From NCBI GenBank assembly GCA_902772585.1, contig CACYBB010000018.1:363-64362 (forward strand): DNA of 64,000 nt. The letters are read 5' to 3'. Position numbers and translations under genes: made by a program. The DNA comes from an uncultured Bacteroidales bacterium. GTDB lineage: Bacteria > Bacteroidota > Bacteroidia > Bacteroidales > Bacteroidaceae. The notes under the pieces were generated by a model. It was not told where the DNA came from. It saw only the letters and a program-made list of their open reading frames with translations, and did not search any database. This document shows positions 43,021 through 43,275 of the stretch, in pieces; position 1 is the first letter of the stretch, and each line of letters opens with the position of its first letter.

Positions 43021-43275
43021 GTCGTATAGAAATAGACGACTACATCGAGGAGAGCGATTAAGCTTTGACCCGTCTGAGAACCTGGAAAATTCGAAGTATA
43101 AGGGTGAGAAGTCTGAAAGCTGTTTCTCCTGCAGTAGCATATATACTGCCCTCTCCGCTATGGAGTTGGCTCACATATATACCTGCAGGTGTGAGCTGAT
43201 TTCATTCTTACTTATACGGGTATTCCAGGACCTTCAGACTAAGGATGTCGAGAAGGCTCACACTCTTTGTACGTA
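43021..43275 (+). ncRNA. Large structured leader RNA with long-range stems and pseudoknot potential
   Basis: Promoter TATATTTG at 43009; nested GTCTGA/TCAGAC, CCTGGAA/TTCCAGG, GTATAAG/CTTATAC; crossing ACATC/GATGT and GAGC/GCTC. Confidence 0.65.

Follow-up and report, generated by a model that had tools for sequence, protein, structure and literature searches.

The region 43021–43271 on the plus strand almost certainly represents a genuine, conserved structured leader RNA. It lies within a 64,000-nucleotide stretch of DNA from an uncultured Bacteroidales bacterium, referred to here as the window, and its features are listed in Table 1. The RNA is approximately 245–250 nt long and is the untranslated mRNA leader of the genes downstream; judged from sequence comparison, it is a member of an uncatalogued class in Prevotella-type Bacteroidales. 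The single-strand fold of the leader region was more stable than that of shuffled sequences (z = −3.1), and the GC content of the stretch was 0.43–0.46 compared to 0.29–0.39 in the downstream genes, in line with an earlier sequence-only reading of this DNA, which had described the stretch as the more GC-rich. The family is uncatalogued; the kind of element, a structured leader with a terminator-type end, is familiar. What sets its architecture apart is a long upstream strand that captures the loop of the terminator-type hairpin.

BLASTN searches showed that the element is present in 27 of 301 genomes of the same family, representing 12 of 35 genera, and that the 5′ and 3′ halves of the matches are better conserved than the middle. 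A scan of species-representative genomes with a pattern taken from the invariant 3′ residues yielded at least 119 loci, almost all of them from Prevotella, Prevotellaceae, and other Bacteroidales, and many from the rumen. The cultured carriers among them, including Xylanibacter ruminicola D31d (L074), Hallella mizrahii LKV-178-WT-2A (L071), and Hoylesella loescheii An865 (L043), make experiments feasible. Further, far more divergent copies were found with a covariance model built here. Several genomes carry two or more copies, and many copies lie at the ends of MAG contigs, as is expected of a repeated 250-nt sequence. With regard to a mobile-element origin, no match was found in 50,697 phage records, 72,556 plasmids, and 2.9 million viral contigs.

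Table 1. Features of the leader RNA and its flanking genes (positions in the window; the main alignment is A5 and the divergent alignment A6)
Feature	Position	Strand	Observation
Intergenic stretch	43000–43300		minus-strand 188-codon gene (42293–42859) on one side; plus-strand gene run from 43309 on the other
−7 promoter box TAnnTTTG, Bacteroidetes type	43009–43016	+	read from the sequence; same distance in the homologue consensus
P1, 5′ hairpin	43021–43025 with 43036–43040	+	sequence free, pairing kept; hairpin of at least 4 bp in 77 of 106 homologues
P2 hairpin	43051–43055 with 43062–43066	+	82% paired in A5, 89% in A6; AU/GC/CG exchanges
Helix A1	43072–43078 with 43233–43239	+	7 bp, 91% paired in A5, many double changes
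Helix A2	43081–43087 with 43223–43229	+	7 bp, 98% paired in A5, many double changes
Helix A3	43096–43102 with 43211–43217	+	7 bp, 83% paired in A5, many double changes
Apical domain	43130–43187	+	helix D, two facing conserved UAUAUAC segments, tip hairpin
Helix D	43130–43134 with 43183–43187	+	85% paired, 4–5 covarying pairs
Tip hairpin	43153–43156 with 43162–43165	+	from the fold of the stretch
Helix B	43189–43197 (GUGUGAGCU) with 43255–43263 (GGCUCACAC)	+	98.5% paired, 5 covarying pairs
Helix C	43203–43209 (CAUUCUU) with 43241–43247 (AAGGAUG)	+	invariant in the main subfamily
3′ strand of A3, A2, and A1	43211–43239	+	entire loop (31 nt) closed by helix C
U-rich tract	43264–43271 (UCUUUGUA)	+	directly after helix B; conservation stops here
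First gene behind the leader, 230 aa	43309–44001	+	45-nt spacer without promoter motif
P0001, 188 aa	42293–42859	−	divergent neighbour; XRE-like five-helix N-domain, beta-barrel C-domain
P0002, 392 aa, membrane-anchored Hanks-type Ser/Thr kinase	41122–42300	+	Pfam Pkinase

The structure was built by hand and its pairs were counted on an alignment of 110 non-redundant homologues (the main alignment); a second alignment comprised 36 mostly divergent matches of the covariance model (the divergent alignment). Sliding the 3′ partners by 1–3 columns and shuffling 500 times served as controls. The results showed that 88.0% of the cells in the main alignment were paired compared to 33–46% in the slid controls, that 623 cells were changed on both sides compared to approximately 150, and that the covariation score was 0.30 compared to 0.07–0.09; none of the 500 shuffles reached any of these measures. 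In the divergent alignment, 89.9% of the cells were paired compared to approximately 41% after sliding, and the covariation score was 0.53 compared to 0.06–0.09. Support for helices B and C from this alignment is independent of the fit, because both helices are absent from the covariance model. The fold comprises ten helices in a nested and crossing topology with asymmetric internal loops. G·U cells (253) far outnumbered A·C cells (70) in the core helices, indicating that the constraint acts on a plus-strand RNA and not on DNA.

The long interrupted stem that the sequence-only reading had drawn between 43072–43102 and 43211–43239 was confirmed. It is made up of three helices of 7 bp each (A1–A3, together helix A) with strong covariation in both alignments, and 95–98% of their cells were paired in the divergent set. 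Helix A crosses helices B and C in an H-type pseudoknot, and every one of the three showed compensatory changes. In divergent homologues, the helix B pairing GUGUGAGC/GCUCACAC is replaced by GCGUGGG/CCCACGC or CGUGAUCC/GGGUCACG, and the helix C pairing CAUUCU/AGAAUG is replaced by UUAUCU/AGAUAA, CUUUAUCU/AGAUAAAG, GUUCAU/AUGAAC, or CGUCC/GGACG; the helix C pair U209–A241 covaries with C–G. B and C make up a single 3′ stem, and its loop of 31 nt consists of the 3′ strand of helix A.

A pseudoknot had been proposed before, and one is supported by helix A crossing B and C, but the frame proposed for it was wrong. The suggested crossing of ACATC (43042)/GATGT (43244) with GAGC (43052)/GCTC (43256) was 66–80% paired with essentially no compensatory change, and these pairings are maintained through sequence conservation alone; the GCTC at 43256 pairs instead with GAGC at 43193 in helix B. 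Both copies of CATATATAC noticed earlier are conserved, but they face each other in one apical domain and do not belong to two separate hairpins. The 5′ hairpin GTCGT/ACGAC was present as described, and the conserved motif GAGGAGAGC precedes P2. A candidate pairing of the 5′ GAGGAG with UUCUCC (43124–43129) was rejected at 62% paired. Some homologues (L063:842–1101, L073:5039–5298) have an extra inserted hairpin of 40–60 nt in the internal loop between A2 and A3, which is a site of variable-length expansion.

Investigation of Rfam 15 by cmscan of the window showed no family match at gathering thresholds, including the riboswitch classes, T-box, EAR, and the Bacteroid* motifs. A permissive Rfam scan of 42700–47600 gave nothing inside 43017–43273 even at E ≤ 10, and no match was obtained for sixteen homologous loci, which agrees with the earlier remark that the RNA could not be matched to a known riboswitch. 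No description of the leader RNA was found in the literature searched, leaving aside the individual unnamed HMP2 candidates, which number in the thousands (PMC8040213).

The leader shares several features with the terminator/antiterminator leaders, such as riboswitch expression platforms and the targets of PyrR, LicT/SacY, and TRAP: an untranslated 5′ leader with its own promoter, a G+C-rich stem and U tract directly before an ORF, and an upstream strand complementary to the top of the stem. However, it matches no known aptamer, protein-binding motif, or Rfam model, and the genes behind it have no common function. In those leaders the antiterminator strand pairs with the 5′ arm of the terminator, whereas in this RNA the putative antiterminator strand pairs with the terminator loop; covariation supports both pairings, which could be present together in a pseudoknot. 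T-box and cobalamin riboswitches resemble the leader in length (approximately 200–250 nt), in having several helices and a long-range loop interaction, and in their terminator-type 3′ end, but neither covariance model scores on it and the genes around it have no relation to aminoacyl-tRNA synthetases or B12.

TAnnTTTG is the established −7 consensus of Bacteroides promoters recognized by the primary sigma factor. The sequence TTATATTTG at 43008–43016 contains this consensus, and the position of the box places the start of the RNA at approximately 43021, with transcription predicted to begin about 5 nt after the box. TAnnTTTG was found before 89 of 110 copies of the RNA but in only 2 of 109 spacers between the RNA and the following ORF. 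A co-oriented ORF comes after almost all copies, with a median spacer of 59 nt (mostly 42–81 nt). The presence of a promoter box before the RNA and its near absence from the spacers indicate that the RNA is the 5′ leader of what follows.

We infer the regulatory action of the leader from its terminator-like 3′ end. A G+C-rich stem with a U tract just before an ORF is the signature of an intrinsic terminator. Helix B is a G+C-rich stem of 9–10 bp with a U tract directly after it: at least 5 U occurred in an 8-nt window behind the helix in 83 of the 110 sequences of the main alignment and in 33 of the 36 divergent ones. The tract reads UUUCUUUU in divergent members and is interrupted (UCUUUGU) in the subfamily to which the window belongs. 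Given this terminator-like 3′ hairpin, the leader probably gates read-through into the downstream genes.

RNAalifold, when unaided, joined B, C, and the pairing GGGU (43218–43221)/ACCU (43230–43233) into one long 3′ stem-loop. One pair of this local hairpin was UA in 17 sequences, CG in 9, and UG in 7, with no C–A; it is the single covarying pair of the hairpin and is confined to one subfamily. By the geometry of H-type pseudoknots, GGGU/ACCU and A2 would exclude each other, as their simultaneous formation leaves no linker nucleotide. The two nested folds were similar in predicted stability (−83.5 and −75.0 kcal/mol in the window; across 37 homologues, they differed by a median of 4 kcal/mol), and two states are plausible. 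Taken together, the terminator-like end, the mutual exclusion expected for GGGU/ACCU and A2, and the similar fold energies favour a conditional terminator (attenuator), a reading that we consider to have an even chance of being correct.

In such an attenuator, B, C, and the local GGGU/ACCU hairpin above them would zip together as an intrinsic terminator immediately before the first gene. If the upstream A strand paired with the loop, the hairpin would lose its nucleating top or the RNA would be held as a pseudoknot. When A captures the loop, the hairpin could neither nucleate nor zip and read-through would rise; when A is unavailable, the terminator would form. Helix B could still form with A paired. 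The balance may be set by a small ligand or a protein, or by the XRE-like regulator and the Ser/Thr kinase encoded nearby through an action at the promoter. A hairpin suggested by RNAalifold between 43067–43071 and 43102–43106, which would sequester the A strand, was 52–76% paired, no better than shuffles, and was rejected; thus, no complete switch is defined.

Because covariation was seen in all three helix sets, A, B, and C may be formed together in a single pseudoknot instead of alternating. The RNA would then be a constitutive structure without switching, in which the A strand is threaded through the loop closed by C and which might, by modifying RNA polymerase, drive processive antitermination over long operons, as put and EAR do, or act as a nuclease-resistant, stabilizing 5′ structure. 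This explanation is rather improbable, although the three helix sets covary in the same sequences and the order of synthesis lets A–A′ form before C′ and B′ close the loop. The many long or multigene units behind the leader (ORFs of up to 2283 aa, arrays of 6–8 genes) would also suit it. However, helix C would have to be no more than one nucleotide away from either end of the 21-bp A helix, which demands a sharply bent, triangular arrangement, and a stem and U tract before an ORF are the hallmark of a terminator and not of an antiterminator. The likeness to phage HK022 put and Bacillus EAR is one of function only, namely a structured RNA that opens long operons and perhaps reads through internal hairpins; there is no sequence or structure match to these RNAs, neither EAR nor any further Rfam model resembles the leader, and put and EAR lack the terminal stem and U tract.

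The genes downstream of the leader are heterogeneous and share no function pointing to a ligand. The largest group encodes BspA-type leucine-rich-repeat proteins of up to 1924 aa; other products are dockerin or cohesin proteins, small membrane proteins (CD225, DUF2752, TM2, GYF_2), DUF6175 lipoproteins, and SRA and GIY-YIG proteins, and many belong to no known family. Homologues of the first gene in the window (43309–44001) were found behind four other copies of the leader. The product of this gene showed weak similarity to Brig1, an anti-phage DNA glycosylase (NCBIfam E = 3e-5, 23.6 bits, below the cut-off of 230). The sequence-only reading had taken the RNA for the master regulator of the gene array in the window. 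A conserved structured leader on the plus strand, behind the only recognizable promoter motif of the co-oriented genes, was indeed found, but 'master regulator' is overstated, because the genes behind the RNA differ greatly from genome to genome and often amount to one large gene.

It is unlikely that the element is instead a stand-alone small RNA of approximately 245 nt that acts in trans or binds a protein, with downstream expression arising from incidental read-through. Its own promoter box and terminator-like end would fit such an RNA, as would the occurrence of several copies per genome, often at MAG contig ends like a repeated sequence, and its linkage to a regulator/kinase pair rather than to one cargo gene. 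Against this, nearly every copy has a co-oriented ORF 42–81 nt further on that lacks a promoter motif of its own, and no conserved single-stranded seed region is evident.

A DNA-level element, in which the inverted repeats are recombinase or repressor sites (an inverton or an integron-like attachment site), is very improbable. The downstream cargo is variable, the arms of helix B form the DNA inverted repeat TGTGAGC … GCTCACA, and 64 of 135 copies have a third GCTCACA before the promoter. However, G·U exceeds A·C by 3.6 to 1 on one strand only, ten nested or crossing helices with asymmetric internal loops are present, no conserved recombinase gene lies nearby, and the upstream GCTCACA remains unchanged when helix B changes. 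That the stretch codes for a 97-aa protein (ORF 42983–43276, plus strand) can practically be dismissed. The frame spans the stretch and has no stop in the window or in 21 close relatives, but all three frames are closed in 88 of 110 homologues, in agreement with the earlier statement that there is no credible ORF. The start codon (ATG) of the ORF is located before the −7 box, substitutions on one side of a helix are compensated on the other, and indels do not come in threes.

The leader is also associated with the divergent neighbour P0001. A P0001 homologue, or its N-terminal domain fused to other C-termini, was found within 2.5 kb upstream of 49 of 92 copies of the RNA, and in the subfamily of the window the P0001 gene and the RNA point away from each other with a constant separation of approximately 128 nt. 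The covariance model matched 40 of 75 P0001-positive genomes that BLASTN missed, compared to 21 of 75 P0001-negative genomes; the co-occurrence is an enrichment and not a rule. P0001 matched no Pfam, NCBIfam, or PADLOC family, including no HTH match, and its database relatives are all unnamed or annotated as 'hypothetical protein'. The AlphaFold model (pLDDT 83.8) has a five-helix N-domain and a beta-barrel C-terminal part. Comparison of residues 1–87 with the XRE-type proteins SinR, DdrO, P22 c2, HipB, and ImmR gave Z values of 4.5–5.7 (VIA-align), a range common for that tool, and a Foldseek search against the PDB gave nothing at E ≤ 0.001. In the model, the resemblance of the N-domain to XRE-type repressors is suggestive without being decisive. 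P0002 is a match to PF00069 with 95.1 bits (cut-off 31.7); its translation contains the HRD (HRDLKPSN) and DFG motifs and one hydrophobic segment, and a homologue was found at 31 of 92 copies of the RNA.

The XRE-like protein and the kinase might act either at the promoter, where the conserved elements 42891–42927 and 42975–42985 lie, or on the RNA itself. The first of these elements, between P0001 and the RNA promoter, contains two AAAAGGAC direct repeats inside the inverted pair GCAAG…CTTGC; it is near-invariant in 13 loci with the divergent arrangement and is a candidate operator or 5′-UTR element of the regulator gene. The second, GGCTCACAATG, overlaps −33 to −45 of the RNA promoter and repeats the sequence of the 3′ strand of helix B; it occurs in 64 of 135 copies. 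The GCTCACA within it (42976–42982), kept in the same number of copies, was considered as an alternative partner in helix B and rejected, as it shows no covariation with B′. A second TAnnTTTG-like box (TAATTTTG, 42947–42954) lies 60 nt upstream of the main box.

Also new, as far as the searches reach, is the linkage of the leader to interchangeable cargo genes and to an uncharacterized pair of regulator and kinase. We tentatively propose, as a possible but doubtful overall reading, an orphan leader class in which the loop of a terminator hairpin is captured by an upstream strand to give a threaded, ring-like pseudoknot. The RNA would answer to a ligand or protein and would join the XRE-like regulator and the membrane Ser/Thr kinase in a two-tier signalling module for switching between expression states of interchangeable surface, adhesin, and defence-like gene cassettes in Prevotella-type bacteria of the gut and rumen. 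Prevotella-type Bacteroidales dominate the rumen and many human gut communities, and to our knowledge almost nothing is known of how their variable surface proteins are regulated. With approximately 250 nt, ten covarying helices, and a pseudoknot, the leader has a complexity usual for riboswitches, T-boxes, and ribozymes. It is a testable handle on the expression of BspA-type leucine-rich-repeat adhesins and other accessory genes, and may expose a new ligand or a new route of RNA–protein signalling.

Other elements were observed in the gene run of the window. The small repeated intergenic motif of the sequence-only reading is the DUF805b RNA of Rfam (RF02914), present at 44019–44053 and 46001–46035 with 40.8 and 38.6 bits (cut-off 35.6). 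It resembles the leader RNA in occurring in the same lineage and the same operon and ahead of small membrane-protein genes. However, it is a 35-nt hairpin AAGG..CCUU followed by a AGAGUAGGC tail, unrelated in sequence and structure, and the leader itself does not match RF02914. DUF805b was rejected as a general companion of the leader, being found behind it in only 3 of 121 copies; wherever the strict DUF805b pattern occurred in the retrieved loci (4 sites in 3 loci), it lay behind the leader and shared its strand. The tightly packed trio of small membrane-protein genes at 44858–45976 (CD225, DUF2752, TM2) recurs behind leaders, for example in L048, L081, L121, L135, and L141. A tandem array with a 22-nt period and the core CGAGAAACGAC (46914–46946 and 47427–47503) is located at the 3′ end of the gene run, and paired 30-nt palindromic units lie at 47175–47204 and 47300–47329.

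Variants of the element itself were also seen among the homologues. Short covariance-model matches of approximately 110–130 nt (for example G067:C1:337278–337389, G116:C15:20836–20959, and G045:C21:233091–233215) cover model positions 58–233 only, that is, the rod of A helices without the apical domain or helix B, and could be miniature relatives or unrelated long hairpins. Locus L098 has two copies of the leader on a single contig, separated by 1.5 kb (3706–3965 and 5232–5491) and each followed by a 60-codon ORF, and both copies carry the helix B variant GUGUGGGC/GCUCGCAC.
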